Source: Candidatus Aminicenantes bacterium UBA6072
GTDB lineage: Bacteria > Acidobacteriota > Aminicenantia > UBA2199
Reading direction: 5' to 3'
DNA: 64,000 nucleotides
Assembly: GCA_002436105.1 (NCBI GenBank)
Contig: DIXU01000008.1
Span: 145,979 to 209,978 of the forward strand
Each line of letters begins with the position of its first letter. Position 1 is the stretch's first letter. A program made the translations under genes and the position numbers. Of the stretch, positions 12,219 through 54,669 are shown in pieces. The notes under the pieces are model-generated. The model saw only the letters and a program-made list of their open reading frames with translations. It was not told the DNA's origin and did no database searches.

Positions 12219-14127
12219 GGTCGTTCTCGTCGGCCAGCCCAATGCCGGCAAAAGCACCCTGTTCAACGTCCTTTCCGACATCAAGTCAGCCTCCGGCAAT
12301 TTCGCCGGCACCAGCGTTCGCCTCACCCAGAGCACCGTGCAGCTGGACGGACGGGTCTTTCAGCTGCTGGACCTGCCGGGTTGCTATTCGCTGAATGCCG
12401 GCGACGACGCCGAGCGCATCTCCCGCGACCATCTGCTGGGCCAGCCGGTCGACCTGGTCATCAACGTGGTCGACTCCATGCAGCTGGCACGCAGCCTGGA
12501 ACTGACCTACGAACTGCTGGAACTGGGGCTGCCCATGGCCGTCGCCCTGAACATGCAGGATGAGGCCGAGAAGCACGGCCTGCTCATCGACCATGAAAAA
12601 CTGGAGCGGGAACTGGGAGTGCCGGTCGTTCCCACTTCCGCCCTGCACGGCAAGGGGGTTCGGCAGCTCATGGATCGCTCCCTGCGCCGGCTGGACGCGC
12701 CGCCTTCTCCGCGTCCCGCCCCGGCCTACACCGCCCACATCGAAGCCCATGTGCGGAAGCTGTCGGCCGCCCTGCCGCAGCCGGGCCCCGGGCACAACGG
12801 CAGCCGCCGCTTCTACGCCATCAAGGCCATCGAGAACCCGGACATGGTACCCAGCGAGTGGCTCCGCCCCCTGGAAGGGAACATCGCGGCCGCCTGCGCG
12901 CAGATCCGCGAGATCCACCAGCTGGAGTGCTTCGAGACGATCTCCTGCGAGCGCCATCACCTGGCCATGAAACTGAGCGAGGAGACCTGCGAGTTCGTCC
13001 CGCGCAGGACGATCCACCTGCACGACCGCATGGACCGCTTCCTGCTCCATCCGCTGCTGGGCCGTCTTTTCCTGCTCGCCTATTTCCTGACCTTTTTCAC
13101 CGTCATTTATGTCACCGGCGGCCTCTTCTCGGGCTGGATCGAACCGCTGCTGAACCGCGGGCACGCGCTGCTTCTGCCCCTGCAGCAGGTATGGCAGCCC
13201 CTCTGGCTGACGGCCGACGGCATTTACCAGGGATTGTCCGGGGCGCTGGGGATCGTCCTGCCCTATTTCCTGCCGCTCATCCTGCTCCATGCCATTTTCG
13301 AGGACTCCGGCTACCTCTCGCGCGTCGCCTTCCTGCTGGACGGCCTCCTGCACCGCGTCGGGCTGCACGGCAAATCGGTGGCCGCTTTCATCCTCGGCTT
13401 CGGCTGCACCGCGCCGGCCCTCTACGCCACGCGCATCCTGGAAAACAAGCGCGACCGCGTCCTGAGCGCCCTGCTGCTGCCGTTCATCCCCTGCTCGGCG
13501 CGCAACGCCATCATTTTCGCCATGAGCGCCGCGCTGGCCGGACCGTTGTGGGCCATGGTGATCTACCTCTTCGTGCTGCTGGTGATCGGGGTCACCGGCA
13601 GGCTCATCTCGCTGTTCCTGCCCAGGCCGGGCGGCTTGATCATGGAGATCCCGGACTTGAGAACGCCTTCCCTGCGCAACGCCCTGTCGGCCAGCGGCCG
13701 GCAATTGAAGGAGTTCGCGTTCACCGTCGTGCCCTGGCTGCTGCTGGGCAGCGCCGCCATGTCCTGGCTGGGGCGACTGGACCTCAGCGGCGCCATCGAC
13801 GCCCTGTTCGCGCCGCTGATCAACGGGCTGTTGGGACTGCCCGCCGCGCTGGGCACGACGCTGGTCTTCGGCTTCTTCCGCAAGGAACTGATCGTCGTCA
13901 TGGCCCAGCAGGCCCTGGGCGCCGCCTCGCTGGCGCTGCTGCCGCTGACGGCCGGCCAGGCCGTGGTCTTCCTGGTCTTCGTGACCCTTTATTTTCCCTG
14001 CTTCAGCACGTTCGTGGTCATGGGCCGGGAGTTCGGCTGGAGGATCGCGGGCGCCTCGGCCGTGCTGAGCGTGATCGTGGCCACGCTGGCGGCCTGGCTG
14101 TTCAAGGTCGTCATCCTCTTTTTTTAG
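12205..14127 (+). CDS. feoB: ferrous iron transport protein B
   Basis: N-terminal G-domain ([13 protein letters not shown]), a gate region, and a C-terminal polytopic membrane domain. Confidence 0.9.
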
Positions 14128-14196
14128 GGCCAGCCGGGGGGGCGGCCGAACCATACGCCGCCAGCGGGAAAAAATGATATTTCTCCCGCTTCGCGG

Positions 14197-16347: not shown

Positions 16348-16869
16348 CTATAGTCCGTGATAGAATCCGGCATACAGCTTGAAGAACGTTCCGGTTTCCT
16401 CCTCGGCGAAAGAAACCTTCAAGGTGGTGCCGGCGCGCAGCCCCATCTTTTCATTCAAGGCATACTCGACCCCGCCGCCGATATTGAAGCCGATATCGGA
16501 GTCACTGCCCGAGAAACCCATGAAGGTGACGCTGGTGTGAATCAGGCAGATGCCGGCCTTGCCGAACAGCGTTAGCCCACCCGACAAGCCGTGCTTGTAA
16601 ACGCCGTTCAGGTTCAGTCCCCAGGCGCTGGAATCGAGGCCCGATCCCGCCGGGTTGAAGTAATACTCGAAGAGTCCCTCGGCGAACAGCTTCGGACTGA
16701 AGCCGTACTGGAAGCCGGCATCGAAGAACAGCCCTTCAAAATCGGAAACGGCCAGGCCCAGGTCGCCGAAAACCTGCATTTCGGGTTTCTGCGCTTCCTT
16801 CTTTCCCGCGGCAAAGCCCAGGGAAGACAGCAGCAGCACGCACAAAATGAAAGGCAGTATTTTTTTCAT
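16348..16869 (-). CDS. small outer-membrane beta-barrel protein
   Basis: Start MKKILPF with signal peptide (ATG 16867-16869, RBS AGGAGG). Tandem paralog of 15762..16274. Confidence 0.55.
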   Translation of the reverse strand: MKKILPFILCVLLLSSLGFAAGKKEAQKPEMQVFGDLGLAVSDFEGLFFDAGFQYGFSPKLFAEGLFEYYFNPAGSGLDSSAWGLNLNGVYKHGLSGGLTLFGKAGICLIHTSVTFMGFSGSDSDIGFNIGGGVEYALNEKMGLRAGTTLKVSFAEEETGTFFKLYAGFYHGL

Positions 16870-16930
16870 TATTTCCTCCTGGCGGATACTATACGCAAAC
16901 ACGATAAAATATCAAGGGCCCGTGAGCGGG

Positions 16931-17980
16931 TCATTCGCCGCTCATGGCCGCGGCCACGGGCCTGAGGCCGGGGATGCTTTCGAAAACGATCTTGATGACC
17001 GCGGTGATGGGCACGGCCAGGAACATTCCGACCAGACCCCACAGCCAGCCCCAGAAAACCAGCGAGAGCAGGATGATGATCGGCGAGAGGTTCATGCTCT
17101 TGCCCATGACCTGCGGCTCGAGCACGTTGCCCATGGCGAACTGCATGAGCATCAGCCCGGCGGCGACCAGGACCAGGCGCAGGCAGAAGCCGTACTTCAG
17201 GAAGGTGATCAGAACCGGGAAGATCGTGCTGAGCAGCGAGCCGAAGGTGGGGATGTAATTCAGCAAAAAGACCAGCAGGGCGGTGAAGATGACGAAATCG
17301 ACCCGGCCCACGATCAGGATCAGTGCCGCCAGCGCGGCGGTGGCCGCGCTCATCAGGGTCTTGATGAACAGGTAATGCTGGATTCTGGCCTCGATGGTCG
17401 TGACCATGTCCAGCAACTCCTCCGCCCGATCCCGGGACAGGGTCCGGGCGATGCGCGTGACCATCGGCACCCTCTCGCCCAGCATGAACATCAGCAGCAG
17501 CAGCACCAGCAGGAGGTTGCCGATAAAATTGGTAAAATTCCCCATGGCCCCCGAAACCAGAGCCGTGATCTGGGCGGGATTGAAAATATTATCCCAATCG
17601 ATGCCGGCAATGTAATGCTTGACATCGATCAGCGGCAGCTTAAAATTGGCCAGCGAACTCTTGAGCAGCTGCGTCACCTTTTCACTGTATGCCGGGAAAT
17701 GGTTGATGAAGGAGGCGGCGCCGGTGAAAAGCAGCAGCCCGCTCAGGAAAAGGCCCAGGAAGATGAGCGCCAGCACTCCGGCCAGGGCCAGGGGCTTGGG
17801 GACGCGCCAGCCCAGCAGCCGGCGCATGATCCCGTTCAGCAGGAAAAAGAGGAACAGGGCGATGCAGAAAGGGATGAAGATGGCGCGCAACTCCCGCAGC
17901 ACGATGACAACGAAAACCGCTGCAATGAAGGCAAAAGCCGCCTTCAGGAGCCCCGTGTCCCCCCGAAGGCCGTCAGCCAT
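16931..17980 (-). CDS. AI-2E family transporter (PerM/TqsA-like)
   Basis: Eight predicted TMs. Conserved C-terminal region (LxxVxxxGxxFLxxPL) typical of the AI-2E/UPF0118 family. Confidence 0.7.
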   Translation of the reverse strand: MADGLRGDTGLLKAAFAFIAAVFVVIVLRELRAIFIPFCIALFLFFLLNGIMRRLLGWRVPKPLALAGVLALIFLGLFLSGLLLFTGAASFINHFPAYSEKVTQLLKSSLANFKLPLIDVKHYIAGIDWDNIFNPAQITALVSGAMGNFTNFIGNLLLVLLLLMFMLGERVPMVTRIARTLSRDRAEELLDMVTTIEARIQHYLFIKTLMSAATAALAALILIVGRVDFVIFTALLVFLLNYIPTFGSLLSTIFPVLITFLKYGFCLRLVLVAAGLMLMQFAMGNVLEPQVMGKSMNLSPIIILLSLVFWGWLWGLVGMFLAVPITAVIKIVFESIPGLRPVAAAMSGE

Positions 17981-18329
17981 AGTTTTCGATCTGGTCCACG
18001 ACGTCGATGACCTCGTCACGCTTGAAGAACAGGAAGTTCGTCACCATGCGGTAGGAGAACGAGTAGCGGATGACTCCGCCTTCGAGCCGGGCGGCGATTT
18101 CCAGGATCTCGATATCGTGCTTCAGCAGGATTTCCTCGATGACCGCCATCAGCGCGGCATCATCCCGGTCTCCGCCGCGCGTGCTTCCCAAGGTGTCGAA
18201 TATCTCCTTCTTGATCTGCTTTTTCTCCAGGTTGCTCCCGATGTACTGGAACGCCATGTAGCCGCCGATGGCCAGTATGGCGATGGCGATCAGGCTCATG
18301 AAGGTCATTTTCCCGCTTTGTCCTTTCAT
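17973..18329 (-). CDS. small membrane-anchored protein (118 aa), translationally coupled to sucD
   Basis: ATG overlaps sucD stop (ATGA) and is preceded by GAGGGAGGA. Single N-terminal TM. The longer track ORF 17973..18869 is a frame artefact. Confidence 0.5.
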
Positions 18330-19237
18330 CGTCCTCCCTCCTTGCTTTTCGCGATTCGACCCGGGGCCTGGCCCAGGATCCTTCTTGCCGCCCGGCCGAT
18401 CTCGGCCGGGTTCTCCACCACGTGAACGCCGTGCTCGCGCAGCACCGCCATCTTCTCGGCGGCGGTGCCGCGGCCGCCGGAGATGATGGCACCGGCATGG
18501 CCCATGCGCCTGCCGGGCGGCGCGGTCTGGCCGGCAATGAACGACAGGACCGGCTTGGCGAAGCCCTTGCCGATGAATTCCGCCGCCTGCTCCTCCATGC
18601 TGCCGCCGATTTCGCCGATCATGACCACCGCCGCGGTCTGCTCGTCGGCGCCGAACAGCTCCAGGGCGTCGACGAAGCTGGTGCCGATGATCGGATCGCC
18701 GCCGATGCCGATGCAGGTGGATTGCCCCAGGCCCTCGCCGCTGATCTGGTCCACGGCGACGTAGGTCAGCGTTCCGGAACGCGATACGATGCCGACGCGG
18801 CCCGGGCGGTGGATGCGCGCAGGCATGATCCCGACCTTGCACTTGCCCGGCGAGATGACCCCGGGGCAATTCGGCCCGATCAGCCGCGAGCGCGTCGTGC
18901 CCAGGAAGCTCTTCACCTTCACCATGTCCAGGGCCGGCACCCCCTCGCTGATGCAGACGATCAGCCGGATATCGGACAGGGCCGCCTCGATGATGGCGTC
19001 GGCGGCGAACGCGGCCGGAACGAAGATGACCGACACGTCGGCCCCGGTCTCGCGGACGGCTTCGGCCACGGTGTGGAAGACCGGCCGCTCCAGGTGCATC
19101 TGCCCGCCTTTGCCCGGCGTGACGCCGCCGACCACGCGCGTGCCGTACTCGATCATCTGTGCGGCGTGGAACGACCCCTCCCGTCCCGTGAAACCCTGGA
19201 CGATCACCCGCGAATTCCCGTCGATGAGGATGGACAT
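18326..19237 (-). CDS. sucD: succinyl-CoA ligase alpha subunit
   Basis: CoA-binding and catalytic-His region (MGHAGAII). Confidence 0.9.
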
Positions 19238-19239
19238 GG

Positions 19240-20406
<1,167 letters not shown>

Positions 20407-20412
20407 CGTCTC

Positions 20413-20970
20413 CTATTTCCGCTCGTACTGCCTGCGGCCCTCCTCATAGATGTCGCCGCCGTACATGTCGTTGATCACCTGGGCCGGGAAGTCCTTCACC
20501 TCCAGCCTGCGGATGGCTTCCGGACCCAGCTCGGGGTAGGCAACCACCTCGGCCTTGAGGATGCTCTTGGAGACCAGGGCGGCGGCGCCGCCGGTCACGG
20601 CCAGGTAGACGGCCTTGTGCCTGCGGAGCGCCTCCTTCACCTCGGAGTTGCGCGACCCCTTGCCGATCGAGGCTTTCAGGCCGAGCTCGTGCAGCTTGGG
20701 AGCGTAGGCGTCCATGCGGTAGCTGGTGGTCGGCCCGGCCGAGCCAATGGGGTTGCCGGGCCGGGCCGGCGTCGGTCCCACGTAAAAAATGACCTGGCCG
20801 CGCAAATCGAAGGGCAGTTCCGCGCCGGCGGCGATCAGGTCGGTCAGCTTCTTGTGGGCGGCGTCGCGGCCGGTATACATGGTGCCGCTGATCAGCACGT
20901 TGTCCCCGGCCTTCAGGCCGGCGACGGTCTCATCGCTCATCGGGGTCGAAATTCGCTTGATTTCGCTCAC
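20413..20970 (-). CDS. class I fumarate hydratase / Fe-S hydro-lyase beta subunit (no alpha subunit adjacent)
   Basis: 185 aa homologous to FumA/TtdB C-terminal domain. The gene upstream is an unrelated propeller protein. Confidence 0.7.
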   Translation of the reverse strand: MSEIKRISTPMSDETVAGLKAGDNVLISGTMYTGRDAAHKKLTDLIAAGAELPFDLRGQVIFYVGPTPARPGNPIGSAGPTTSYRMDAYAPKLHELGLKASIGKGSRNSEVKEALRRHKAVYLAVTGGAAALVSKSILKAEVVAYPELGPEAIRRLEVKDFPAQVINDMYGGDIYEEGRRQYERK

Positions 20971-20979
20971 GGGGTCCTC

Positions 20980-22995
20980 CTAGATGGATTTTTGGAACAC
21001 CTTGTCGTTGCCGAACTCGTCGCTGAGCTTGATGAGCAGCATGCGCGAGTTTTTCGGGTTGCTCAGCTCGAAGCGGTAGGTCTCGACCCGCGAATCCCCG
21101 ACCAGGTCGTCCGGTAATACCGGGACCCACTCCTTGCCGTCCAGGGAATACAGCGCCAGGGCCACGGCCGAGGCCTGGTCCTCCGCCTTGAAGCGGACGC
21201 TGCGCCCCGTCATGGAGAACTCGGAGAGGAGCGGGGCCGTGGAATCGATGATGAACGGCGCCGAGGTCCGCACGGCGTTCCGGGCCCAGGCCGGGGCATT
21301 GTCCAGGCCGTCATCGGCCTGCACCTTCAGCTGGTACTTGCCGTCGGCGAAGAGCTCGCAGTCAAGGTACAGCCACTTCTCGCGAAGTTCCTTGCGCAGC
21401 GGCAGCCATTCATTGCCGGGAAGCTTGCGCAGGGACAGGGTGAAGTTCAGGCGGTCCTGGTTGGGGTCACTGGCCTCCCAGGAGACATGCAGGTATTTGT
21501 TCGGCGGCGTCGTCTCGGGGACCGGCTTCCTGTCGCCGGGACGCTGGACGAGGACGGGCCCGATCACCGGTTTCAGGTTGTCGGTCAGATAGTGGACGCG
21601 GTAGCCCGACAGCAGGGGGGACGCGCTGGGGCTGCTCGAGCTGAGCACGATCTTCACCTGCAGGAAGCGGTAGCCGCCGGTGTTGATGTTCGAGTTCTCC
21701 GGGTCGGTGAAGGGGGCCGACCAGTTCGTCCAGGAGCGGTCGGGATAATCGGAATTCCCCAGGCGCACGGAAAAGGAGACCGCTGAAGGGGCGGCATCCT
21801 CGACGTTCCAGGAAAGGCGGCCGAAGCGCGACTGGATGCGGGCGTCGAACACCTCGGAGAAGTACGTGCCGGTGGCGTTCATGCCTCCCTCCACCAGGGT
21901 GATGCCGGCCGTGTTGTTGGCGATCAGGTAGTAGCCCTTGCCCGGCGCAGCGCTGCCGACGATGCGGAAGATCTGGGCCGAGTCGCTCTCGCAGACTTGA
22001 GCGAAGGCGCCGGAGCGGTCCACGCGGTAGACGCGCCCGGCGTTGCCGGTGCCGATGACGACCGCTTTGGCCTGGCGGTCGAAATGGACGGCATAGGCCA
22101 GTTCCTCCGTCGAGGACCAGAGGGACTCGACCCCGCCGCCGGGGCTGAGGCAGTACAGGATGCTCTTTTCGCGGACCGCCTCCTTGTCGGGGGCCGTGTT
22201 CCGGGTGAACGCGGAGCCGATCTCGAATTCCTTGCCCGATTGCGGCGCCGGGACGCTCTTGACCGCGGTGAAATACACGTTGCCGTCATCGTCGCTGGTG
22301 ATGCCCTTGATCTCCTCGAGGGGGGAATCGAACAGCACGCGCACCTTGCGGTTCCTGATCTCGTAGAGGATGCCGCGGTCGCCGCTGCCGGCGAGGATGG
22401 CGTTGTCGGAAGTGACGTGCAGGCTGATGATATGCGAGTCCTCTGCCGTCAGCAGGTTCTCCACCGCGCCGCCCTTGGCGATGCTGTAGACGGCGCCGGT
22501 GTTGCCCAGGGCGCAGATGATGTTGCCCTGGCGGTCCTCGGCCAGGTCCCAGATGAATTTCTCGTCGGGATGGAACAGCTCAGTGGACTTGCCGTCCCTG
22601 GCGACGCGGACCACGCGGCCGTTGGGCGACGTGCCCACGATCACGTCGCCGCTGCCTTCGACCAGCAAGGCGTAGACGTCGAGCTGCTCGCCCTGGAAGA
22701 TCTTTTCGGTCTTGCCGGCCGCACTGACCCGGTAGACCGCGGCGTTGTGGCCCGTGCCCAGGTAGAGGTCGCCGGCGGAGGCGGCGGCGGCCAGGTAGAA
22801 TTCCTCGGCCGGACCGGGAATGCTCTTCAGCTTGGGCCCCAGGGAAAGGCCGCCGTTGCTGTCGATGCTGACATGGACGAAACTCCCCTTCTGAAAATCG
22901 GCCAGGCTTGACTTCTCGACCTGCTTCACCCGGACCGCGCCCAGGGCGGGGGCCAGGGCCAGCAGCGCGATGCCCGCTAGGATCTTGCTATTCAT
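20980..22995 (-). CDS. secreted beta-propeller protein (Reg_prop/Y_Y_Y-like repeats)
   Basis: Signal peptide, many repeated G-x-x-Y/SxDG blades, and a C-terminal Ig/FN3-like region. Overlaps the next gene by 8 nt. Confidence 0.55.
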   Translation of the reverse strand: MNSKILAGIALLALAPALGAVRVKQVEKSSLADFQKGSFVHVSIDSNGGLSLGPKLKSIPGPAEEFYLAAAASAGDLYLGTGHNAAVYRVSAAGKTEKIFQGEQLDVYALLVEGSGDVIVGTSPNGRVVRVARDGKSTELFHPDEKFIWDLAEDRQGNIICALGNTGAVYSIAKGGAVENLLTAEDSHIISLHVTSDNAILAGSGDRGILYEIRNRKVRVLFDSPLEEIKGITSDDDGNVYFTAVKSVPAPQSGKEFEIGSAFTRNTAPDKEAVREKSILYCLSPGGGVESLWSSTEELAYAVHFDRQAKAVVIGTGNAGRVYRVDRSGAFAQVCESDSAQIFRIVGSAAPGKGYYLIANNTAGITLVEGGMNATGTYFSEVFDARIQSRFGRLSWNVEDAAPSAVSFSVRLGNSDYPDRSWTNWSAPFTDPENSNINTGGYRFLQVKIVLSSSSPSASPLLSGYRVHYLTDNLKPVIGPVLVQRPGDRKPVPETTPPNKYLHVSWEASDPNQDRLNFTLSLRKLPGNEWLPLRKELREKWLYLDCELFADGKYQLKVQADDGLDNAPAWARNAVRTSAPFIIDSTAPLLSEFSMTGRSVRFKAEDQASAVALALYSLDGKEWVPVLPDDLVGDSRVETYRFELSNPKNSRMLLIKLSDEFGNDKVFQKSI

Positions 22996-24769
22996 TTTTC
23001 CTCTCTTTGATGCGCAGCTTGAATATCTTCTTGCCGGCGACCACCGCCGGCACCTCGAACTGATACTCGGCCACGGTGGAGAACGCCATGTTGGCCTGGT
23101 CCTTGGCCAGGGTGTTGTAAAGCAGGACGTTGCCCACGCTCGATGGCAGGTAGGAATACTCGAAGCCGCGGATGAACAGCCCCTGGGCCGGAACGAAAAG
23201 CTTCAGGTACAAGCGGCTGTTCCTGCGGATGTTGTTGATGGCACGGATGAGGGCGCCTAGGTCGGATGGGAAATAGGTCGTCTTGACGGCCTTGGCGTCG
23301 AAATCGGAGATGCCGGCGGCATCGGCGACCATGAGGTAGAACTCCGCTCCCGGCTTCAGGTTGGGCGCCTTGACCTGGATCCTCTCGGAGAACGCTCCGC
23401 CCTTCTCGTTTTTGAGCTGCATGTCGATCGTCATCAGCTCCTCCGGGAGATAGGCGACCTTGTCGATGAGGACGTTCTCCAGCTCGGCGCGCTGGACGGC
23501 CTCGCGGCCGCTGATCTCGAAATCCATCTTCTGGATGCGGGCGTTCTTTTCCCGGTTGTTCATCAGGAAATAGTTGATGACCATGACCAGGGTGGAGAAT
23601 TCATCGGCGGCCTCGGTGCCGCTGAACAGGTCATCCATGACCACGTTATCCTCGTTCTCGACGAAGATCTTGCCGTTGACGCGCAGCGACTGGAATCCGA
23701 ACTCCTGGTACTCGGCCTGCAGGGCGTTCAGCAGGGAGATGTAGGTCAGGGCCGGCGTCAACAGCGGGTGGTTGACCACCTCGAGGTTGAAATTGCGGTT
23801 GCGGTTCTTCAGGAAGATCTTCAGGGGGATCATGGCCGGCGCCTGCCCCAGCTCGGCCATGACCCCGGAGAAGCGGTCCTGGCGCACGGCCCCCACCGGG
23901 TTGCGGGTGGCGGCCAGCTTGAACGAGCTCTCGTAGGAGGGGACGACGGAGATGACCTCGGCCTTGTGCAGCGGGAAGTCCACCGTGCCCAGGTTGAAGA
24001 AGGGATGGCCGAAGACATAGACCTTCTGGCCGTCGACATGGGTCACCGTGCCGGTGGCGGCGTAGGAGGCGTCGCCGCGGATGAGCGGGATGGCGACGGC
24101 GTCGGCCGGCCGCACGGTGAACATCTCCGGGGAGAGCTTGCGCGTGCTGATGTCCTTGCCGACGGCCATGCTTTGCAGCGGGACGAACAGGTCGCCCAGG
24201 AAGGAAACCGCCTCCGGCGTGAAGCCGCGGCTGCTGGCGAAGAGCTTGATCGGCGCCAGCGAGCGGGCGGGAGAGAAGTTCAGGCGGGCGGCCAGCTCGT
24301 TGCGGATGGCCGCGGCCACGCGCCGGGCGTTCTGGCGGCCGAAATCGATCTGGATATTGCTGATCTCCACGCTGGCGGCCGGCGCCGAGGCAACGGCCGA
24401 TATCCTCAGGATGTCCTCGATCGGCGTAATGCCTGCGATCGGCTTGCGCGAGAAATTGCTCAAGCCGTAGGACACGGAACCGATGAGCCGGCCGTTGATA
24501 TATACAGGGCTGCCGCTCATGCCGGCGATGACGCCGCCGTCGTTCAGCTCCGGGGCGTTCAGCTCGGCGATGATCAGGCTCTTGTCGGAAACGAACTTTT
24601 CCATCACGCCCAGCACCTTGAAGGTGAAGGTCTCGATGGTGCTGCCCTTGAAAATGGTGCGCCCCTCCCCTTCCATGCCGGGCTTGACCTCGGACAGCTT
24701 CATGATATCGGTGGCCGCCAGCAGGCAGGAGAGCAGCAGGCCGGCAGCCGTCAGCGCGATTCGTTTCAT
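22988..24769 (-). CDS. peptidase S55 (SpoIVB-like) domain protein
   Basis: Signal peptide, then a GMSGSPVYINGRLIG motif matching the S55 catalytic serine region. Confidence 0.6.
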   Translation of the reverse strand: MKRIALTAAGLLLSCLLAATDIMKLSEVKPGMEGEGRTIFKGSTIETFTFKVLGVMEKFVSDKSLIIAELNAPELNDGGVIAGMSGSPVYINGRLIGSVSYGLSNFSRKPIAGITPIEDILRISAVASAPAASVEISNIQIDFGRQNARRVAAAIRNELAARLNFSPARSLAPIKLFASSRGFTPEAVSFLGDLFVPLQSMAVGKDISTRKLSPEMFTVRPADAVAIPLIRGDASYAATGTVTHVDGQKVYVFGHPFFNLGTVDFPLHKAEVISVVPSYESSFKLAATRNPVGAVRQDRFSGVMAELGQAPAMIPLKIFLKNRNRNFNLEVVNHPLLTPALTYISLLNALQAEYQEFGFQSLRVNGKIFVENEDNVVMDDLFSGTEAADEFSTLVMVINYFLMNNREKNARIQKMDFEISGREAVQRAELENVLIDKVAYLPEELMTIDMQLKNEKGGAFSERIQVKAPNLKPGAEFYLMVADAAGISDFDAKAVKTTYFPSDLGALIRAINNIRRNSRLYLKLFVPAQGLFIRGFEYSYLPSSVGNVLLYNTLAKDQANMAFSTVAEYQFEVPAVVAGKKIFKLRIKERKNE

Positions 24770-24939
24770 GGCTTCTCCAGACGGCGGCCGCCGGGATTCG
24801 CCCGCCGCTCGCGGCGGCAGGTTCCTGCACTGGCGGCAACCCCAATCGTTATTCCCTTCATTTTCCTATTGGTTGTGCAACGGGAAACAAAACGCATCAT
24901 AATCAAAATCACGCGAAAAATCAAGGCGGGACGCCGGGC

Positions 24940-26805
24940 TTACGTCTGCGGATCGCCGATGGTCGTCTCGGAACGGTCGTTGCTGCCGGAAACGATGATC
25001 TGGTTGCTGGCCAGGTCGAGATGCAGCTCCTGCCCGCGCGTCGTCCCGGCCCCGCGGCGGCGGATCTCGGCCCGCTCGCGGAAGACGACGGACTGGCGCG
25101 CGTATTGCCAGTGCAGCGCCTGGCCCCGGCCCTCGATATCCTCCTTGCGGAAGGAGGCGGCGTCAAAGGCGAAAACGTCCTGCAGCCTGTCATCGGGGCC
25201 GAAAACCAGCTCGATCCTGCGCGCGGCCAGCGAGTTCGCGCCCTGCTCCAGCCGGGCATCCCTCTCGATGACGATCCGGCCACCGCCGGCATCCAGGTCG
25301 ATCGCCTGTCCGTGCAGGACCAGCGGCTGCCCGTCGTTGGCGAACTTCAATTCGGCGCCGCCGCGGCAGGACAGCGCGCCGCCGCCGCCGAACAGCAGCT
25401 CGCCGGCATGCAGTTCCACCTCATCCTGGAACAGGCTCACCCGGCCGGTGAAGCGGCTGGCGTCATCCTTTTGCGAGGTTTCCAGCTCGTCGGCGGTGAC
25501 GAAAACCGGCTTGGCCCCCAGCAGGGCGCTCTTCCTGCCGGGGATGATCGTGGCCTTGACGCCTTGCTCGCCGGTGATGCGTTTCGACCCGGTTTGCATG
25601 CGGAAATGACGGGATTGAAAGCGGTTTTTGCCGCTCTCGATGGTGGAATTCGGTCCGGAAATGCCGATCTCCCCGCTGGACGCGTCATAATCGAGGCGCT
25701 GGGAAACGCCGGAAAAATCGTCGGTGACGAACCGGCATTCGCCTTTCGCCTGGACCGCCGTGAGTTCGCCGGCCGGGTCGTACGCCGCGTCCAGGATCAG
25801 GCAGTCGACGCGGAGATTCTCCCGGCCTTCGCTGGCCAGGGTGCCGCGGGCGAGCATGCGGGCCTCGCGCAGGATCTGGGTCTCGGGATCCAGCGTGATG
25901 TCGACGGCATCGGAAAGCAAACGGCTTTTGCCTTCCCGGGAGCTGGTGGAGATCGTGGCCCGTTCGCGAACTTCCAGCAGCCGCAGCCGTCCCTGGTCCC
26001 CATACAGGAGCTTGATGCGTTCGGCGGCGATCTCCTTGTCCAGCCGCTGTCCGTCGTCGCCGGCCTGCCGGGTGTCAAAAAGGCATTCGCCGGTGGCCAG
26101 CGCCCACTGCGCCTGGGCGAAATCCGGATCGAACTGCATCAGGACGCGCCGCGCCCTGAGCGCGGAGCGGGCTCCCTCCACGCGGACGTCCCCTTCCATC
26201 AGCAGCCAGTTCTGCTTCCGGTTCACCCGGAGCAGCCGGGCCTGGAAATCGAACGGCCGCTCGTCGCGGATCATCACGCCCTTGAAATCGAGCAGCTTCA
26301 TGAGCTTGGCCTGGATCACGTAGACCATGCCCCCGGCGGCCCGGCCGCTGACCGGATTGAGCCGGATCTCCACGGCGTCCTGGCTGGAAAGCAGGTCCAG
26401 GCTTTTCAGGTCGAAGCTGCGGCCGGAGAGGGTGAAGCGCGGCGAAGAGATGCGCACGTCCCCCTCCAGGAAAAAGTCGTTGAACTCGTTTCCGGCCCGG
26501 CCGCTGTCGGCCGCAACGCGGATGTCCTCGCCCAGCTTGTCGACGCGGTAGAGGGTCGCCACGATCTGCTTCATGCGCAGGGTGTCGTCGTCACCTTTCT
26601 GGGATTCGGCGCACTGAACCTGCAGTTTTTTTTCATTGTCCAGGTTGAAGGTCAGGTAGGTCAGGTCGATGCCCTCGACCTCGCCCTCCGGGGTCTTCGC
26701 CGCCGCGGCGGCCCCTCCCGGGCGGTTGCGCACCCACAGCAGTCCGACCAGCAGCAGCGCGGCGAGCAAGGACCAGGCAATGATCGTTTTCTTCTTCGCT
26801 TTCAT
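24940..26805 (-). CDS. LptA/OstA-like repeat protein with N-terminal membrane anchor (LptC/LptA-like)
   Basis: 621 aa with an N-terminal TM and repeated OstA-N-like beta-jellyroll segments. Confidence 0.5.
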   Translation of the reverse strand: MKAKKKTIIAWSLLAALLLVGLLWVRNRPGGAAAAAKTPEGEVEGIDLTYLTFNLDNEKKLQVQCAESQKGDDDTLRMKQIVATLYRVDKLGEDIRVAADSGRAGNEFNDFFLEGDVRISSPRFTLSGRSFDLKSLDLLSSQDAVEIRLNPVSGRAAGGMVYVIQAKLMKLLDFKGVMIRDERPFDFQARLLRVNRKQNWLLMEGDVRVEGARSALRARRVLMQFDPDFAQAQWALATGECLFDTRQAGDDGQRLDKEIAAERIKLLYGDQGRLRLLEVRERATISTSSREGKSRLLSDAVDITLDPETQILREARMLARGTLASEGRENLRVDCLILDAAYDPAGELTAVQAKGECRFVTDDFSGVSQRLDYDASSGEIGISGPNSTIESGKNRFQSRHFRMQTGSKRITGEQGVKATIIPGRKSALLGAKPVFVTADELETSQKDDASRFTGRVSLFQDEVELHAGELLFGGGGALSCRGGAELKFANDGQPLVLHGQAIDLDAGGGRIVIERDARLEQGANSLAARRIELVFGPDDRLQDVFAFDAASFRKEDIEGRGQALHWQYARQSVVFRERAEIRRRGAGTTRGQELHLDLASNQIIVSGSNDRSETTIGDPQT

Positions 26806-26910
26806 GGGCGATGCGCACTGGCGGCGGGTCCCCGGCGCCGGGCCGGCGTGCGCGCCGCGCGGGCCCCGCTGCCCCCCTTGCTTTCGTTTACGATACGGCC
26901 CGGGATCGAC

Positions 26911-27417
26911 TCAGGGGCCAACGTGGATGAGCTCCTGCTCCTCGCCGTATTCCTCGAAACGCTCCAGGCTGCTTTTTTCCACGTCAAGCAGCTTGTAATG
27001 CCCCATCTCCATCATGGAAAAATAGAGCAGCAGGTTCTTCCTGGCGGGGTCGTCGGCGAACAGCTCGGCCAGCTGCAGGTAGAAATCGTGGGCCGCCTGC
27101 TCGGCGTCCATGGCCTGGGCAATGATGCCGCTCAGCGGCACCAGCTCGTCGCGGAAGCGGACCTCGGGCAGGGGCACGACGGGGGTGTCGGGGACAACGA
27201 TGGCCTGGCCGGGAAAACGCTGGCGGAAAAGCTCCTCCAGCGACTTCTGGTGCTTGCCTTCCTCGAGGGCGAGGAAATCCAGGCGCTCCTTCAGGAAGGC
27301 GTTCTTCACCGCTTTCGCCAGCCGGGTATAGACGGCCTGGCTGTCGATCTCGCTCTTGACGGCGGCCAGCAGCAGGTCGGCCAGCGCGTATTTCTTCAAA
27401 TTCAAATTCTTCATCAT
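26911..27417 (-). CDS. ferritin-like / rubrerythrin-like four-helix-bundle protein
   Basis: 168 aa with two ExxH-like diiron motif pairs (EEGKH, MMEMGHYK). Confidence 0.5.
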   Translation of the reverse strand: MMKNLNLKKYALADLLLAAVKSEIDSQAVYTRLAKAVKNAFLKERLDFLALEEGKHQKSLEELFRQRFPGQAIVVPDTPVVPLPEVRFRDELVPLSGIIAQAMDAEQAAHDFYLQLAELFADDPARKNLLLYFSMMEMGHYKLLDVEKSSLERFEEYGEEQELIHVGP

Positions 27418-27445
27418 GACCTCCTTGGAACGGCCGCAGCCGTGA

Positions 27446-28030
27446 TCAATAGTTCTCCACCCAGAGCTCGAAATGCTCCCGGGGATGATCGCAGACCGGG
27501 CACTTCTCCGGGGCCTGGTCCGCTTCGACGACCGCGCCGCAGACGCGGCATTTCCAGGCGGTCTTGCGCGGCCTGGCGAAGACCGTCCTGTCCTTCACGT
27601 TCTGCAGCAGCTTGCGGTAGCGCGCCTCGTGCCGCTTTTCCACCGTGGCCACGGCGCGGAAAACGCGGGCGACCTCGGGGAAGCCCTCCTCGTCGGCGAC
27701 GCGGGCGAACTCCGGGTAGAGGGCGCACCACTCCTCGTTCTCGCCGGCGGCGGCGTACTCGAGGTTCTTTTCCGTCGTGTCCAGCGCCACCGGGTAGGCG
27801 GCCTGGATCTCCAGGGGCTCGCCGTTCATCGCCGCAGCCAGGGGCTTGTAGAACAGCTTGGCATGCATGCGCTCGTTCTCGGCCGTCTCCAGGAACAGCT
27901 CCTCGATCTGCTTGAAGCCTTCCTTGCCCGCCGTCTTGGCATAGAACGTGTAGCGCATCCGCGCCTGCGATTCGCCGGCAAAAGCCTTGAGAAGATTCTC
28001 CGCCGTGCGGCTGCCCTTGAGTTGCTTCAT
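27446..28030 (-). CDS. rbr: rubrerythrin
   Basis: Diiron ferritin-like domain plus a C-terminal rubredoxin-like CRVCG...CPVC. Start set at MKQLKG. Confidence 0.85.
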
Positions 28031-28050
28031 GGTTCGACCTCCACAATCCG

Positions 28051-28716
28051 TCATTGTAGCTTTTTTCCGCCCAAAGTCAAGGAGGATCGGCCTCCGTCCC
28101 CTTGCAGCAGGGACAGGGCTTTTTCTTCGTCATCGCCGCGGCGGACGATGCGCGGCGTCTCGCCGGTTGCATCGACCACGGTCGATCCCCTGGAAGGCGG
28201 CAGCGCTCCCCCGTCGATGAGCAGGTCGAGGCCCGGGAACTCGCGGGCGATGCGCCGCGGGTCGTTCAGGGGCGGCCGTCCGCTCAGGTTCGCCGAGGTG
28301 CCGATCAAAGGGAAGCCGAGGGCGGAGATCAATTCCAGCAGCAGCGGCAGGCCCGGCATGCGGATGCCGATTTTCCCGCTCCCCTTGAGCAGGGCCGGGT
28401 CGACGGCCGGGCCCGGCTTGAAAAGGAAGGTGAACTTCCCGGGCAGCAGATCCTGGAGCCGCCCGCGGAAAACATCGGGGATCTCGGCAACGAGCGATTC
28501 CAGCATGGCCCAGTCGGCGACCGCGGCCGAGTAGGGCGATCCTCCCCTCCCCTTCAAGCGGTCGACGGCCGCATGGGCGGCCGGCGACAGGAAATTCCCT
28601 CCCAGCCCGTACAGGGTGTCGGTGGGATAGGCCATGATGCCGCCGGCGTGCAGGCAATCGCGGATGCACGCCGAATTATCGGGGACGAGGACAGAGTCGA
28701 AAGGAATGACGGTCAT
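28051..28716 (-). CDS. tsaC: L-threonylcarbamoyladenylate synthase (TsaC/YrdC family)
   Basis: [10 protein letters not shown] hallmark motif. Start MTVIPFD overlaps upstream stop (ATGA). Confidence 0.8.
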
Positions 28717-39915: not shown

Positions 39916-40797
39916 CTACCTGGCGAAAACGACCGTGACCGGCATGCCGATCTTGAAAACATCCAGGTCAGAGTCAATCCCGACCTTCACCTGGTAGAGG
40001 AGCGCCTGGCGCTCCTTCTCGGCGACGATGTACTTGGGGGAGAATTCGGCCTTGCGGCCGAAAAAGGCGATGCGCCCGGAAAAGGTGCGGTTTGCCATGC
40101 CGTCGACGGAAATGACGGCCTGCTGGCCGAGCTTCAGCGCCGCGATCTCCTTCTCCTCGATGAACACGTCGACGAACAGGCTGGAGAGGTCGAGGATGTC
40201 GGCCACGGCGACTCCGGGCATGACGGTCTCCCCCGGGACGGCAAAGGTCTCGAGCACCACGCCGGAAACCGGCGACTGCAGCAGCAGGTCCTTTTCGGCG
40301 AGATCCAGCGCCTGGCGCTGGTTGGCGATGCGTTCCCTCTGGATCTGCAGCGCCTCCAGCGAGCTGTCGAGCTCGAACAGGGCGGTTTGCGCCTCCTTCA
40401 GCTGCAGGCGCGATTTTTCCAGCTGGTCCCCGGATATGGATCGGCTCTGCTTCAGCCGCTCGAAGCGCTCCACCTGCTCCCGCCAGTAGAGCTGGTTGGC
40501 CAGCAGCAGCCGGCGCTTCTCCCGGGCGCGGGTCTCGCTGTTGGCGACATCGCGCTCCATGAGGGCCAGCTCCTCCCGGCGGTTGCGCACCTTGTCGCGG
40601 TTCATCTCCGCCACCGGGTCGCCCTTGCCGACGGCCTGGCCTTCCCGCACCAGGAGGCGGTCGAGGGTGCCGGCCGCCAGGACCCGGACGCTGGCGATCT
40701 CGCCGTCGACGACCCCGGGGGCGCGGATCTGTCGTTCGTTGCCGCCGCAGGATACCAGCCACACCATCAATGAGGCGAGCGCCGTCGTCTTTTTCAT
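39916..40797 (-). CDS. HlyD-family membrane fusion protein
   Basis: Start set at MKKTTALASL (RBS AGGAGG). Coiled-coil hairpin and beta-barrel/lipoyl regions. The track ORF N-terminal extension is discarded. Confidence 0.75.
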   Translation of the reverse strand: MKKTTALASLMVWLVSCGGNERQIRAPGVVDGEIASVRVLAAGTLDRLLVREGQAVGKGDPVAEMNRDKVRNRREELALMERDVANSETRAREKRRLLLANQLYWREQVERFERLKQSRSISGDQLEKSRLQLKEAQTALFELDSSLEALQIQRERIANQRQALDLAEKDLLLQSPVSGVVLETFAVPGETVMPGVAVADILDLSSLFVDVFIEEKEIAALKLGQQAVISVDGMANRTFSGRIAFFGRKAEFSPKYIVAEKERQALLYQVKVGIDSDLDVFKIGMPVTVVFAR

Positions 40798-42101
40798 CCT
40801 TCCTCCTCGAATTTTCCGACCAGGGTGTCGATCGCCGCCTTGAGCATTTCGAGCTGCGCCAGGGCCTCGTCGCGGCTGGAGCGGTAGCGTTCCTGCCCGG
40901 CCATGGCCGCCAGCAGCAGAAAATGGTCGATCTGCCGCTCCTCGTAGAGCTTTTCCTTCAGTGCCGCGTCCTCGCCGGCATTGGCCAGCAGGCCCTCCAG
41001 GAGAACGAGCTTGCGGCGGACGCTGTCCAGGGAAAGATACAGCTGCCGCAGGTTCTTTTCGCTCTCGCGGATGAAATCGGCGCGCTGGTTCTCCAGCTTG
41101 CGCACTGCGATGTCGGCCAGTTCCAGGTCGCGCCCGCGCTGGTTCCAGTCGAAGACCGGCAGCGAGACGCGCAGGCCGCCCATGACATAGAAGGCCCATT
41201 CGTTGACGAAGAAATTCTGCCCCGGCCGGGCGTAATGCGCCTGGGCAAAGGCGCTGACCTGCGGCCGGTAGGCGGCGGCGGAGGCCCGCTTTTGCTCCTG
41301 CAGCATGCGCGCCCGCCCGTCCAGGGAGCGCAGCAGCGGATGACGCTTCAGGAAATATTCCCAGTCGGCCTCGAAGCCGTCGGCGCCGGCGCCGGGCTGG
41401 AAATCGACGTCCTGCGGGTCATGGCCGCAGAGGCTGCGGAACTGCACGGCCTCCTGCCCCAGCAGCTGCTCCAGGTCCTGCAGGCCCAGCCGCGCTTCAT
41501 CGGCCCTGGCCCTGGCCTCCAGCAGGTCCGACCTCCTCACCAGCTCCTCCTCGTGCAGGCGCGCCACTTTCTTCACGTGCAGGTCCAGGCTGGCCAGCAG
41601 GGAATTCAGCGAGTCGCGCTTGCGGCTGAAGCGCAGGTGATTGAAAAAGGAGGCCTTGACCAGGCCGGCCAGCTCGATCTTCTTCAGGCGCGTCAGGTCA
41701 CGCTCCGCCGCCCCGCGCGCCGCCTCCATCTTCACGGCGCTGGCGAGGCGGCCCCCGGTATGGAGCGGCTGGAGCAGCGTAACGTTCAGATCGGCCGTCC
41801 CGTGGGGCGTCGAGAGGATGACCGTTCCCGCCGGCACCTGGGGGCCGAGGGGGAAGGGGAAATCCGCGGCGGTCACCTGGATGGCGTCGGAACTGTAGCG
41901 GTAGCTGCCTTCAAAACCGGCCGTGAAGCGCCGGCGCCGCAGCGCGCTCCGCTCGGCAATGGCGGCGGCCGCCACCTCCAGTTTCTGGCTGTCCAGGCCG
42001 CGGTTGATGGCCCAGGCGTCGGCCACGGCGCGGGAGAGGGTCACCCTGGCCGGCAGCATCATGGCCGATGCCAACAGGATCGCGAACAGAGTTTTTTTCA
42101 T
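40794..42101 (-). CDS. TolC-family outer membrane efflux protein
   Basis: Signal peptide, duplicated alpha/beta repeats, 435 aa. Confidence 0.75.
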   Translation of the reverse strand: MKKTLFAILLASAMMLPARVTLSRAVADAWAINRGLDSQKLEVAAAAIAERSALRRRRFTAGFEGSYRYSSDAIQVTAADFPFPLGPQVPAGTVILSTPHGTADLNVTLLQPLHTGGRLASAVKMEAARGAAERDLTRLKKIELAGLVKASFFNHLRFSRKRDSLNSLLASLDLHVKKVARLHEEELVRRSDLLEARARADEARLGLQDLEQLLGQEAVQFRSLCGHDPQDVDFQPGAGADGFEADWEYFLKRHPLLRSLDGRARMLQEQKRASAAAYRPQVSAFAQAHYARPGQNFFVNEWAFYVMGGLRVSLPVFDWNQRGRDLELADIAVRKLENQRADFIRESEKNLRQLYLSLDSVRRKLVLLEGLLANAGEDAALKEKLYEERQIDHFLLLAAMAGQERYRSSRDEALAQLEMLKAAIDTLVGKFEEEG

Positions 42102-52770: not shown

Positions 52771-54669
52771 TCAGTCGTTGATCACCTGGATGGCAGGGTA
52801 AATTTTCCAACCTCTGCCTTTGGTAAAAGAAAAATGATTCATCTCGCAATGAGGCAAATTGATGGCATAGCCATTTTGTTGCTTATAGCCTTCATAAATA
52901 TGGATTTCCCGATGGATCGGGAATGAATCTTCGAGGATGGGAAAACCATTCTCGGTCATGGCGGGCAGGCAGGATTGCGAGAAAATGGTGGCTGCAATAT
53001 CTGCGGTTTGCGTTTCCCTCTGGGAAATCGTGAGCTGTGATGCGGAACGATGAGCCGGTTTGATCAGCAATAATGCCTGGCTCCATTTATCCATTTGCCT
53101 GGCATCAAAATCAGGGCGTTTGATCAGGGCATCGATTTCACTCATCGTCTCCGCAGATTCGGGGGTTTTCAGGGAAAACAGATTATCTTCTTTGTATGCG
53201 AAGCCATGGTCGGAATGGATCATTATGGTCGCATTATCGTAACGATCAAGGCGCTTCAACTCGGAAACGAATTGATCGATCAAGTTGAAACAGGCTTGAA
53301 CCTGGTCGTTGCGGGTCGTTCCTTCCGGGTGATAGACGAGTTTGCCGTCCAAAACATATGGATTATGTGGAAGATAAATATGCGCCTCGACATAATGTCC
53401 TTGGTGCCCGCGCAATTCTTCCTCAGCAAGCATTGTCCGAAATATGTTCAAGGCGGTACCGACCCGCAAGTGCGTATTGGAAAAATCGCCTTTCTTGCCA
53501 AAATTTCGGCTCAGTAAGCCCCGACCTTGGTCATAAACCTCTTTTCGTAATGGAACCGGTGCCAGTCTCAGCAGGCAGAGATCTGCGAAATTCAGGCGGT
53601 GCAGAATCTGATTATGCGCATGATGCTGGATTCTGTCAGCAACCGCGAAGGACACCTTTCTGAATGCAGGCTCATTTCTTTTAAAACTCGCATTCCCATA
53701 AAGGGAAGTCAGCCAACCGTTTTCCAGCATTCGTTCGGAAATGGTTGGAATGGCTGCATTCAAAATCCACTCCCGCATATTCCCACCTTTAAAAAATGAG
53801 CCGGTTTTGCAGCATGTCACCGATGGCTGAGTCCATAAATAGTTTGCTCTATTTTTCGGATAAAAAATGAAGTCTTTTAAGGTTCTTTGGTGCTTGCTTT
53901 TTGGATAGCATGTTTGAAATTCTTGTGAACCGAAACTGTCAAAAAGCAGCCGGTAGATGTTGCCGCCGGTAATGGTCGCTTGGGGAATGGGATAAGTGAT
54001 TTTTTTGGTTGGATCGGCATAACCATGGTCTGAATGACTTCCCTTGACATCCAATTTCACCAGCAGCAGGATGAGTATCAAAATGGCTATTGTTCCGCCC
54101 ATCGCTCGCAGCAATTTCCGCGGCAAACGAATGAAAGCGAATAGCAGCAGCAAAAATATCAAGCACTGCAGCAAAGTCGCAGCCACAGGTTCAAGCGGTG
54201 TCCATTTGTCCTCCATCCCGCTCGGGGATGACATGCGCAACGGGAAAAGGATTTGCGACAGGTAGACAAACAGCCCAATGAAAAAGAACAACCGGCTCAG
54301 TCGTGAGCGCCACAATGGAGAAAACGTGAACGAAAGAAATAAAAGAACCCCCATGCTTGCGCCGGCGGCAATCAAAAAGGAGTGCAATACATCGCTGGGG
54401 AATTCATTCAGGTTACCCAGGAACAATTCCACCGGAATGGAAATGAATAAAATGGTGGGCAGGAAGCTGGCCAGTGCCATATCACTGAGCCGGTCAATCA
54501 GCAAACTCTTGTGATTTTTCACAAGCCCCCCCTGTGCCATCCGCCAACATTTTATATAATTTTTTCTTTCCGTCAATATAGTTTCAATTGCCGATGGGGT
54601 GCCGATACTGCATGACAATAAATGGTTCTCTTTCCCCATATTTCCGCAAGTTGGGCTTGAAATTTCCAT
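52771..54669 (-). CDS. membrane-anchored LtaS/EptA/sulfatase-like transferase, low-GC paralog of 29949..31805
   Basis: Multi-TM N-terminus then a sulfatase-fold domain (HSDHGF). True start may be an internal Met (MAQGGL or MALASF). Confidence 0.6.
   Translation of the reverse strand: MEISSPTCGNMGKENHLLSCSIGTPSAIETILTERKNYIKCWRMAQGGLVKNHKSLLIDRLSDMALASFLPTILFISIPVELFLGNLNEFPSDVLHSFLIAAGASMGVLLFLSFTFSPLWRSRLSRLFFFIGLFVYLSQILFPLRMSSPSGMEDKWTPLEPVAATLLQCLIFLLLLFAFIRLPRKLLRAMGGTIAILILILLLVKLDVKGSHSDHGYADPTKKITYPIPQATITGGNIYRLLFDSFGSQEFQTCYPKSKHQRTLKDFIFYPKNRANYLWTQPSVTCCKTGSFFKGGNMREWILNAAIPTISERMLENGWLTSLYGNASFKRNEPAFRKVSFAVADRIQHHAHNQILHRLNFADLCLLRLAPVPLRKEVYDQGRGLLSRNFGKKGDFSNTHLRVGTALNIFRTMLAEEELRGHQGHYVEAHIYLPHNPYVLDGKLVYHPEGTTRNDQVQACFNLIDQFVSELKRLDRYDNATIMIHSDHGFAYKEDNLFSLKTPESAETMSEIDALIKRPDFDARQMDKWSQALLLIKPAHRSASQLTISQRETQTADIAATIFSQSCLPAMTENGFPILEDSFPIHREIHIYEGYKQQNGYAINLPHCEMNHFSFTKGRGWKIYPAIQVIND

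Follow-up and report, generated by a model that had tools for sequence, protein, structure and literature searches.

Part of what defines a peptidase clan is the order in which its catalytic residues follow one another along the chain, and family S55 is listed in clan PA, in whose N-terminal barrel the histidine lies between strands 3 and 4 and the aspartate between strands 5 and 6 (PMC3944710). The founder of S55 is the sporulation enzyme SpoIVB of Bacillus subtilis, in whose crystal structure Asp363 lies about 24 Å from His236 and for which Thr393 was proposed as the third catalytic residue (PMC12502668). S55 peptidases were 'widely detected' in acidobacteria in a MEROPS-based comparative-genomics survey (PMC8841776); the existence of the family and its S55 label in Acidobacteria are already known. 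Here, two overlapping genes were analyzed in a stretch of 64,000 nucleotides (nt) of contig DIXU01000008.1 from Candidatus Aminicenantes bacterium UBA6072, referred to as the window. The first gene (22988..24769, minus strand, stop codon included), taken from the open reading frame (ORF) list and matched by Pfam S55, codes for a protein of 593 amino acids (aa) related to S55 serine proteases, and the second (20980..22995, minus strand, stop codon included), taken from the same list, for a propeller/immunoglobulin (Ig)-like protein of 671 aa, here called the partner. All features located within these genes lie on the minus strand as well. We consider it probable that the pair encodes an exported, catalytically competent and circularly permuted S55/clan PA serine endopeptidase together with a partner with which it would form a complex in the cell envelope.

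With 32 bits, above its gathering score of 25 (E 1.7e-7), the Pfam model Peptidase_S55 (PF05580) matched the protease over residues 26-105 only, equivalent to positions 116-196 of the 210-position profile. These 80 residues were also aligned by 9lnf, the crystal-structure sequence of SpoIVB, with the first serine of the GMSGSP motif falling on Ser378, which marks Ser85 (codon at 24515..24517) as the predicted nucleophile; the longer motif GMSGSPVYINGRLIG occupies residues 83-97. Comparison of the family profile with the SpoIVB C-terminal barrel through its last helix using hhalign gave probabilities of 97.6-99% and a best E of 1.5e-18, and the Ser barrel, residues 24-126 (24392..24700), shares homology with this barrel of SpoIVB/S55, including the helix that ends it. 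This barrel begins right after the signal peptide and leaves no space upstream for a His barrel. As regards S55 membership, the Pfam threshold is exceeded and the serine of GxSGxP is equivalent to Ser378, but the histidine is not found N-terminal to the serine. A preliminary description of this DNA had proposed a SpoIVB-type S55 peptidase on the grounds of the catalytic-serine motif. The motif and the homology at the Ser barrel are real, with a Pfam score above the cut-off and Ser85 on Ser378; the SpoIVB type did not hold, neither as orthology nor as architecture. The SpoIVB equivalog model TIGR02860 gave 31 bits against a cut-off of 305.25, and, judged from its sequence, the 593-aa protein is not a SpoIVB orthologue. 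Whereas SpoIVB homologues carry PDZ domains of the families PF17820, PF00595 or PF13180, the PDZ domain that the preliminary description had suggested looking for was not found in the protease by Pfam at E<=0.1, nor in its linker. Moreover, the protease has no Trypsin or Trypsin_2 Pfam match and does not show the HtrA/DegP-type (S1C) architecture of a Trypsin_2 domain followed by PDZ. The same description had regarded a closer likeness of the motif region to an S1 fold as an argument against S55. This turned out not to be a matter of either/or, because S55 itself sits in clan PA (PMC3944710), and Foldseek finds both SpoIVB and S1 enzymes.

In the chymotrypsin/S55 fold the His-bearing barrel is N-terminal; in the protease its equivalent is predicted to follow the Ser barrel. 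Between the two lies a linker of about 90 residues (127-217; 24119..24391), which is mostly helical, poorly conserved and without a PDZ or other Pfam match, and which reaches a predicted local distance difference test score (pLDDT) of 52-93 in the AlphaFold2 model. The model was built from an alignment of 143 homologues and has an overall pLDDT of 92.3 and a predicted template modelling score (pTM) of 0.90, which indicates confident domain packing without saying what that packing is; a first AlphaFold run with only 34 close homologues (pLDDT 43) was discarded. In the model, the first barrel consists of strands 33-39, 45-60, 63-71, 88-91, 94-103 and 111-116, followed by a helix (117-125), and the second, the His barrel (residues 218-312; 23834..24118), of strands 224-232, 235-246, 249-252, 261-276, 283-299 and 302-307. 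Within the second barrel, strands 3 and 4 flank the predicted general base His255 (codon at 24005..24007), which is part of a GHP motif and aligned to SpoIVB His236, and the predicted third triad residue Asp298 (codon at 23876..23878) is found where strand 5 ends, ahead of strand 6; by the modelled secondary structure, these are the clan PA positions of the two residues. In the re-ordered profile alignment described below, the near-invariant Asp298 aligns to the conserved Asn290 of SpoIVB (NRNSPFGIFG; 9lnf chain position 194). The spacing of 43 residues between His255 and Asp298 compares with 45 residues between histidine and aspartate in chymotrypsin. As modelled, the protease shares with clan PA the two six-stranded barrels and the positions of the residues within them, but not the linear order His, Asp, Ser: its order is Ser85-His255-Asp298, with His255 located 170 residues C-terminal to Ser85.

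Residue conservation follows the two barrels, which are the only strongly conserved regions in the conservation profile of the protease. The 143 aligned homologues are diverse, sharing 26-84% identity with the window protein at a mean column identity of 25%. Only ten of the columns are invariant, namely G83, S85, G86, S87, P88 and G97 in addition to G232, H255, G261 and G293, and D233 and D298 are each conserved at 99%. In a set of 381 homologues (27-95% identity, median 34%), every member has Ser85, His255 and the complete GxSGSP motif, and Asp298 and Asp233 each occur in 379. The C-terminal region of 280 residues (313-593; 22991..23833) is modelled as alpha/beta domains with pLDDT mostly above 90; neither a Pfam match nor a fold match in PDB or BFVD at E<=1e-3 was found for it.

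Because the His barrel follows the Ser barrel by about 100 residues, the fold appears circularly permuted, and the tests made on this point in sequence and model, though each modest alone, agree. When the His barrel was compared with the SpoIVB family profile by hhalign, residues 235-311 aligned to SpoIVB 214-303 with His255 on His236 (P 0.0096); the aligned segments are GTVTHVDG..KVYVFGHP and, in SpoIVB, GTMTFYEPKTKKYGALGHV, and the likeness at the level of motifs comprises GTxT..GH and xGxI..(D/N)..FGI. A sliding-window scan of the protease returned P values of 0.002-0.004 in one constant register, only in windows containing residues 201-331, as compared to at least 0.09 in the remaining windows and 0.087 for a reversed control. 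Furthermore, re-ordering the barrels in silico (218-312, then 24-126) raised the Pfam S55 score above that of length-matched controls in five of five family members (35.8, 36.4, 36.9, 44.4 and 34.2 bits versus 33.3, 32.8, 32.3, 33.8 and 31.2 bits), and for one member a single S55 alignment of the re-ordered construct spanned profile positions 14-194 of 210. At the level of profiles, the match between the re-ordered family and that of SpoIVB extended across both barrels with 173 columns, whereas the native order and three controls reached 95-106 columns. Foldseek matched SpoIVB, SGPB, Rv3671c and MucD with probabilities of 0.9-1.0 over only about 110-137 columns, roughly one barrel, and such partial matches are as expected for an order-dependent aligner applied to a permuted fold. 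With the whole 593-residue model, Foldseek returned nothing at E<=1e-3 in PDB or BFVD.

The protease and partner genes overlap by 8 nt (ATGAATAG, 22988..22995), where the protease stop and the partner start meet: in the junction sequence AAAAATGAATAGCAAG the partner ATG overlaps the protease TAG, and a ribosome-binding-site-like stretch, GAGAGGAAAA, is located just upstream of the partner start. Closer orthologous loci repeat the overlap (gap of -4 between tblastn matches). Both N-termini, MKRIALTAAGLLLSCLLAAT of the protease (residues 1-20; 24710..24769; helix 2-16 in the AlphaFold2 model) and MNSKILAGIALLALAPALGA of the partner, are by inspection charged and then hydrophobic; these starts are signal-peptide-like, and the two proteins are hence putatively exported. 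A lipoprotein assignment of the protease based on LLSC was considered and rejected: the cysteine varies across the family in the alignment of 143 sequences, and a lipoprotein is unlikely.

Searches via the protease yielded 79 genome loci, and in all 73 that had room for it the partner gene lies immediately downstream; this set includes Terriglobia loci, whose proteins share 31-35% (protease) and 29-31% (partner) identity with those of the window. Three more representatives from metagenome loci (27-31% identity) have the same pair among unrelated neighbours in three of three cases, bringing the total to 76 of 76 loci with room. In the reverse direction, 80 metagenome loci were found via the partner, 74 of which have the protease directly upstream, while four are cut by contig ends and two are without it in a 4-kb range, i.e., linkage holds in 74 of 76 propeller loci with room. 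In one case the two are fused: P0268 (L080:196-4053, GCA_041890195.1), a single ORF of 1285 aa, comprises protease (14-596) and partner (687-1215); the linker in between, some 90 residues long, is rich in Pro, Ala and Glu. The flanking genes are conserved within sub-clades only and none is common across clades: sucC/fumB, LptC/A-like and CheY-like receiver neighbours are kept only within Aminicenantes sub-clades, EF-P and other neighbours only in low-identity clades, and Tol-Pal, Opp, M1 peptidase and HslV neighbours were seen in single loci and are anecdotal. Since linkage holds both ways while the flanking genes differ between clades, protease and propeller constitute an autonomous, co-inherited two-gene module. 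The preliminary description had noted the 8-nt overlap with the 671-aa propeller/Ig-like gene, had taken the latter for a dedicated partner gene and had pointed to co-occurrence across genomes as a check. The overlap was confirmed, the pair is kept in 76 of 76 loci with room, and linkage in both directions and the fusion take the dedicated partner far beyond what an overlap in a single genome could support.

Comparisons of a partner profile built from 23 orthologues with known structures identified propellers with E 2e-27 to 1e-16 over residues 64-247, the matched chains being the designed Cake, Bagel and Scone proteins and a PQQ-like propeller. The propeller domain extends from about residue 60 to 370 (21886..22818, borders approximate) and contains repeated GxGxxGxVYRV blades, with blade motifs at residues 80, 121, 164, 203 and 315. 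The C-terminal part (about residues 371-671; 20983..21885) consists of a Trp-rich beta domain followed by FN3/Ig-like domains and contains an invariant DPNxD motif; here the profile matched FN3/Ig chains (IFNAR1, titin) over about residues 498-600. Invariant residues of the partner are W396, W422, W425, D510, N512 and D514. Among the orthologues, Pfam recognized Reg_prop in 23 of 23, Vgb_lyase in 15 and SGL in 14, and some of them are matched by Big_13, fn3 and Y_Y_Y. In the scan for Reg_prop/Y_Y_Y-type domains, the window partner itself scored 18.8 bits, under the Pfam cut-off of 20.4.

Following this, we propose that the Ser barrel (24-126) and the His/Asp barrel (218-312) pack as in SpoIVB and chymotrypsin and would thereby form a Ser85-His255-Asp298 triad. 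The C-terminal region of the protease and the separately encoded partner would stand in place of the SpoIVB PDZ domain. The partner would be made from the translationally coupled downstream gene and would form a complex with the protease in the periplasm or cell envelope, where it may select, gate, recruit or present substrates, replacing the PDZ domain of SpoIVB and HtrA enzymes. Four envelope genes in the window, coding for an LptC+LptA-like protein (24940..26805), an outer-membrane protein (OMP) beta-barrel (16348..16902), a TolC-type outer-membrane efflux protein (OEP; 40794..42101) and an HlyD-type protein (39916..41199), confirm that the host is a diderm. The Acidobacteriota, to which Candidatus Aminicenantes belongs, are not known to sporulate. 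The diderm context described beforehand is thus borne out and the non-sporulating host is supported; the non-sporulation role with a dedicated partner or substrate suggested along with them agrees with the findings as far as the host and the dedicated partner gene are concerned. A housekeeping role in the envelope fits better than sporulation-type signalling, because the autonomous two-gene module is kept across Acidobacteriota.

Several observations weigh against the proposed permuted protease and its partner complex. The His-barrel segment alone has no Pfam match even at E<=10 and no hhalign match to a single SpoIVB sequence; a signal arises only against the family profile, where the probability is only 4-12% and the pairwise P about 0.002-0.01, weak alone. 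The gains on re-ordering are modest, amounting to +2.5 to +10.6 bits and +3.6 to +12.6 hhalign score units. Asp298 is matched by Asn290 in SpoIVB, which residue completes the triad of S55 is itself disputed (PMC12502668), and the three-dimensional geometry of the Ser85-His255-Asp298 triad is inferred. On the side of the partner, the P0268 fusion occurs on one 4.1-kb contig only and may be an assembly or frameshift artefact, two propeller homologues (L159:4001-6106 and L162:4001-6112, 29% identity) lack a protease gene in the 4 kb to each side of them, and flanking genes and annotations point to no substrate. Both L159 and L162 contain a second weak propeller-like match downstream, at about 6800-7300, and their propeller homologues may be paralogues with another role. 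The weakness of the His-barrel segment when taken alone would suit an account without true circular permutation, in which the second barrel is unrelated, its likeness to the His barrel is due to chance or a modelling artefact and any catalysis would use a different arrangement, for example a Ser/Lys or Ser/His dyad; Lys284, which also counts in favour of this account, is conserved at 91-96%. This account is quite improbable in our view, given that the six-strand topology, the motif match, the specificity of the window scan and the re-ordered full-length S55 alignment all agree and that the barrels are the sole strongly conserved regions of the protease.

We rate it as very improbable that the protein is a pseudo-protease without catalysis, with barrels that bind peptides or proteins as a scaffold and an envelope complex that includes the propeller. 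In favour of this reading, no more than half of the S55 profile aligns in the native order, and residues 313-593, which make up most of the protein, have no recognisable relatives; pseudo-enzymes, however, usually lose residues of the kind that are retained here, where Ser85, His255 and GxSGSP are kept in every one of the 381 homologues and Asp298 in all but two at a median identity of 34%, while most columns vary. It is harder to dismiss, though still unlikely, that the protease acts alone, with the propeller/Ig protein serving as a substrate or inhibitor or being just a co-transcribed envelope protein, since linkage, overlap and fusion reveal functional coupling but not its kind. SpoIVB cleaves a specific partner protein (PMC6581720), and this can be counted in favour of such a reading, as can the two propeller homologues without a nearby protease gene; moreover, the protease could bind substrates with its own C-terminal region. 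Against this stand the fusion, as subunits are joined in one chain more often than an enzyme and its own substrate or inhibitor, and the similar divergence of the two proteins: between Aminicenantes and Terriglobia, protease and partner have each kept about 30% identity, as would suit a co-evolving complex. An exported, permuted endopeptidase with an envelope partner is accordingly the reading we retain. A bolder version of it, to which we would give somewhat less than an even chance, is that the natural permutation with the order Ser-His-Asp defines a new peptidase (sub)family near-universal in Acidobacteriota that works only as a two-protein machine, in which the propeller/Ig protein, in rare cases fused to the protease, would gate the access of periplasmic substrates.

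An exhaustive search with the protease among cluster representatives at 50% identity returned 5964 matches at E<=1e-3 and 1795 at E<=1e-30. The best matches are nearly all full-length proteins of about 580-640 aa, and more than 3500 full-length homologues were counted. Their source labels include Aminicenantes, Terriglobia/Versatilivoraceae, Vicinamibacterales and 'Acidobacteria', with homologues at 95-96% identity in Candidatus Aminicenantes metagenome-assembled genomes (MAGs); the loci analyzed here are all from MAGs. Many MAG labels (uncultured Clostridia, Chrysiogenales, Patescibacteria group, Acidimicrobiia) clash with the protein identity and synteny to Aminicenantes or Terriglobia. Such labels stand on L002, L007, L012-L015, L057, L058 and others, several of them on proteins more than 75% identical to those of Aminicenantes, and look like mislabelling by submitters. 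In the databases the homologues are named only 'hypothetical protein' or 'SpoIVB peptidase S55 domain-containing protein'. Within our coverage of the literature, which was incomplete, nothing was found on the architecture, partner or function of acidobacterial S55 proteins, nor on permuted chymotrypsin-fold proteases, and within that coverage no description seems to exist of the reversed order of the barrels, the obligate partnership with the propeller or the fusion.

The 5' neighbour of the protease gene in the window, separated from it by a gap of 170 nt, is the LptC+LptA-like gene (24940..26805, minus strand), which codes for a 621-aa protein with an LptC-like N-terminus (residues 13-172) and an LptA/LptD_N-like domain (residues 436-532). 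Its divergence greatly outpaces that of the genes around it: identity in locus L001 is 59%, as compared to 92-96% for the protease, propeller, fumarase and sucC genes. The gap contains a weak sigma-70-like promoter match (24896..24924, minus strand), and the promoter scan of 17800..27600 found one sigma-70-like site versus 1.1 expected by chance. In 46 loci (in L021-L049 and L102-L116; Aminicenantes at 40-65% identity), the nearest ORF upstream of the protease codes for a CheY-like protein of about 137 aa, its receiver domain judged by eye, whereas the Lpt-like gene takes this place in the clade of the window. Further 5' are a rubrerythrin-family gene found by the Pfam scan (26911..27417, minus strand), just upstream of the Lpt-like gene, and adjoining it a gene whose product looks by eye like a rubrerythrin with a C-terminal CxxC..CxxC rubredoxin-like end (27446..28054, minus strand). 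On the 3' side, a gene for a fumarate hydratase beta-subunit of 185 aa with Fumerase_C only (20413..20970, minus strand) starts 9 nt past the propeller stop and is followed by sucC (19240..20406, minus strand) and sucD (18326..19237, minus strand) with gaps of 6 and 2 nt. Because these genes follow at gaps of 2-9 nt, the pair may be co-transcribed with tricarboxylic acid (TCA) cycle genes in Aminicenantes. Elsewhere in the window, Pfam gave no match at E<=1e-5 for several long ORFs (476-920 aa; 52771..54669, 55057..57819, and on the minus strand 57900..59330 and 12286..14154). The ones at 52-60 kb fall within a stretch of lower GC content (52-57% versus about 63-65% elsewhere) adjoined by MBOAT and glycosyltransferase genes, which may be a surface-polysaccharide island. 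Among the PADLOC anti-phage defence models, no family matched the protease or the partner at E<=0.01.

If the bolder version is true, the two genes code for a core protease system of the envelope, so far uncharacterised, in a major phylum of soils and sediments, in which Acidobacteriota are abundant and whose envelope biology is almost unstudied. A large natural family with the clan PA fold and triad but with reversed barrels would be a useful case of fold evolution. Linkage in both directions across classes of Acidobacteriota, together with the fusion, makes a two-component protease a concrete and testable proposition. As for annotation, domain models see half of the catalytic domain, and the names given to these proteins follow a sporulation enzyme that is unlike them in architecture and context. 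Moreover, the alignment of Asp298 with Asn290 bears on which residue completes the S55 triad in SpoIVB.

In comparison with known systems, the Reg_prop/Y_Y_Y sensors of hybrid two-component systems resemble the partner orthologues in their repeats and Ig-like domains and in being extracytoplasmic, but the partner is without kinase or regulator domains and linkage to a protease is not a trait of these sensors. In tricorn protease, prolyl oligopeptidase and DPP-IV, beta-propellers control substrate access, with the propeller in the same chain and catalytic domains of other folds. They likewise combine a serine protease with a beta-propeller and offer an analogy only for how the partner might work: the propeller of the window is a separate protein, fused once, and no homology to them was detected. 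The S1-type proteases SGPB, MarP, MucD and DegP form a group with periplasmic or envelope proteases in diderms. Structures of SGPB (3sgb), Rv3671c/MarP (3k6z) and MucD (8k2y) gave partial matches with probabilities of 0.9-0.97 over 112-137 columns and agree with the predicted positions of His, Asp and Ser within the barrels, while DegP structures reached only 0.06-0.21 in Foldseek; the 593-aa protease differs from this group in its permuted barrels, the lack of PDZ and of Trypsin or Trypsin_2 matches, and the separate propeller partner. SpoIVB shares with the protease the Ser barrel with GMSGxP on Ser378 and the terminal helix, the His motif GTxT..GH on His236 when order is ignored, the clan PA double-barrel fold and export, which is predicted for the protease. 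The order is His...Ser in SpoIVB and Ser...His...Asp in the 593-aa protease, Asn290 of SpoIVB is replaced by Asp298, and the protease has no PDZ domain but an additional 90-residue linker and 280-residue C-terminal region. Finally, where SpoIVB has SpoIVFA, SpoIVFB and BofA as sigma-K checkpoint partners, the protease of the window is accompanied by a propeller protein in a non-sporulating diderm host.

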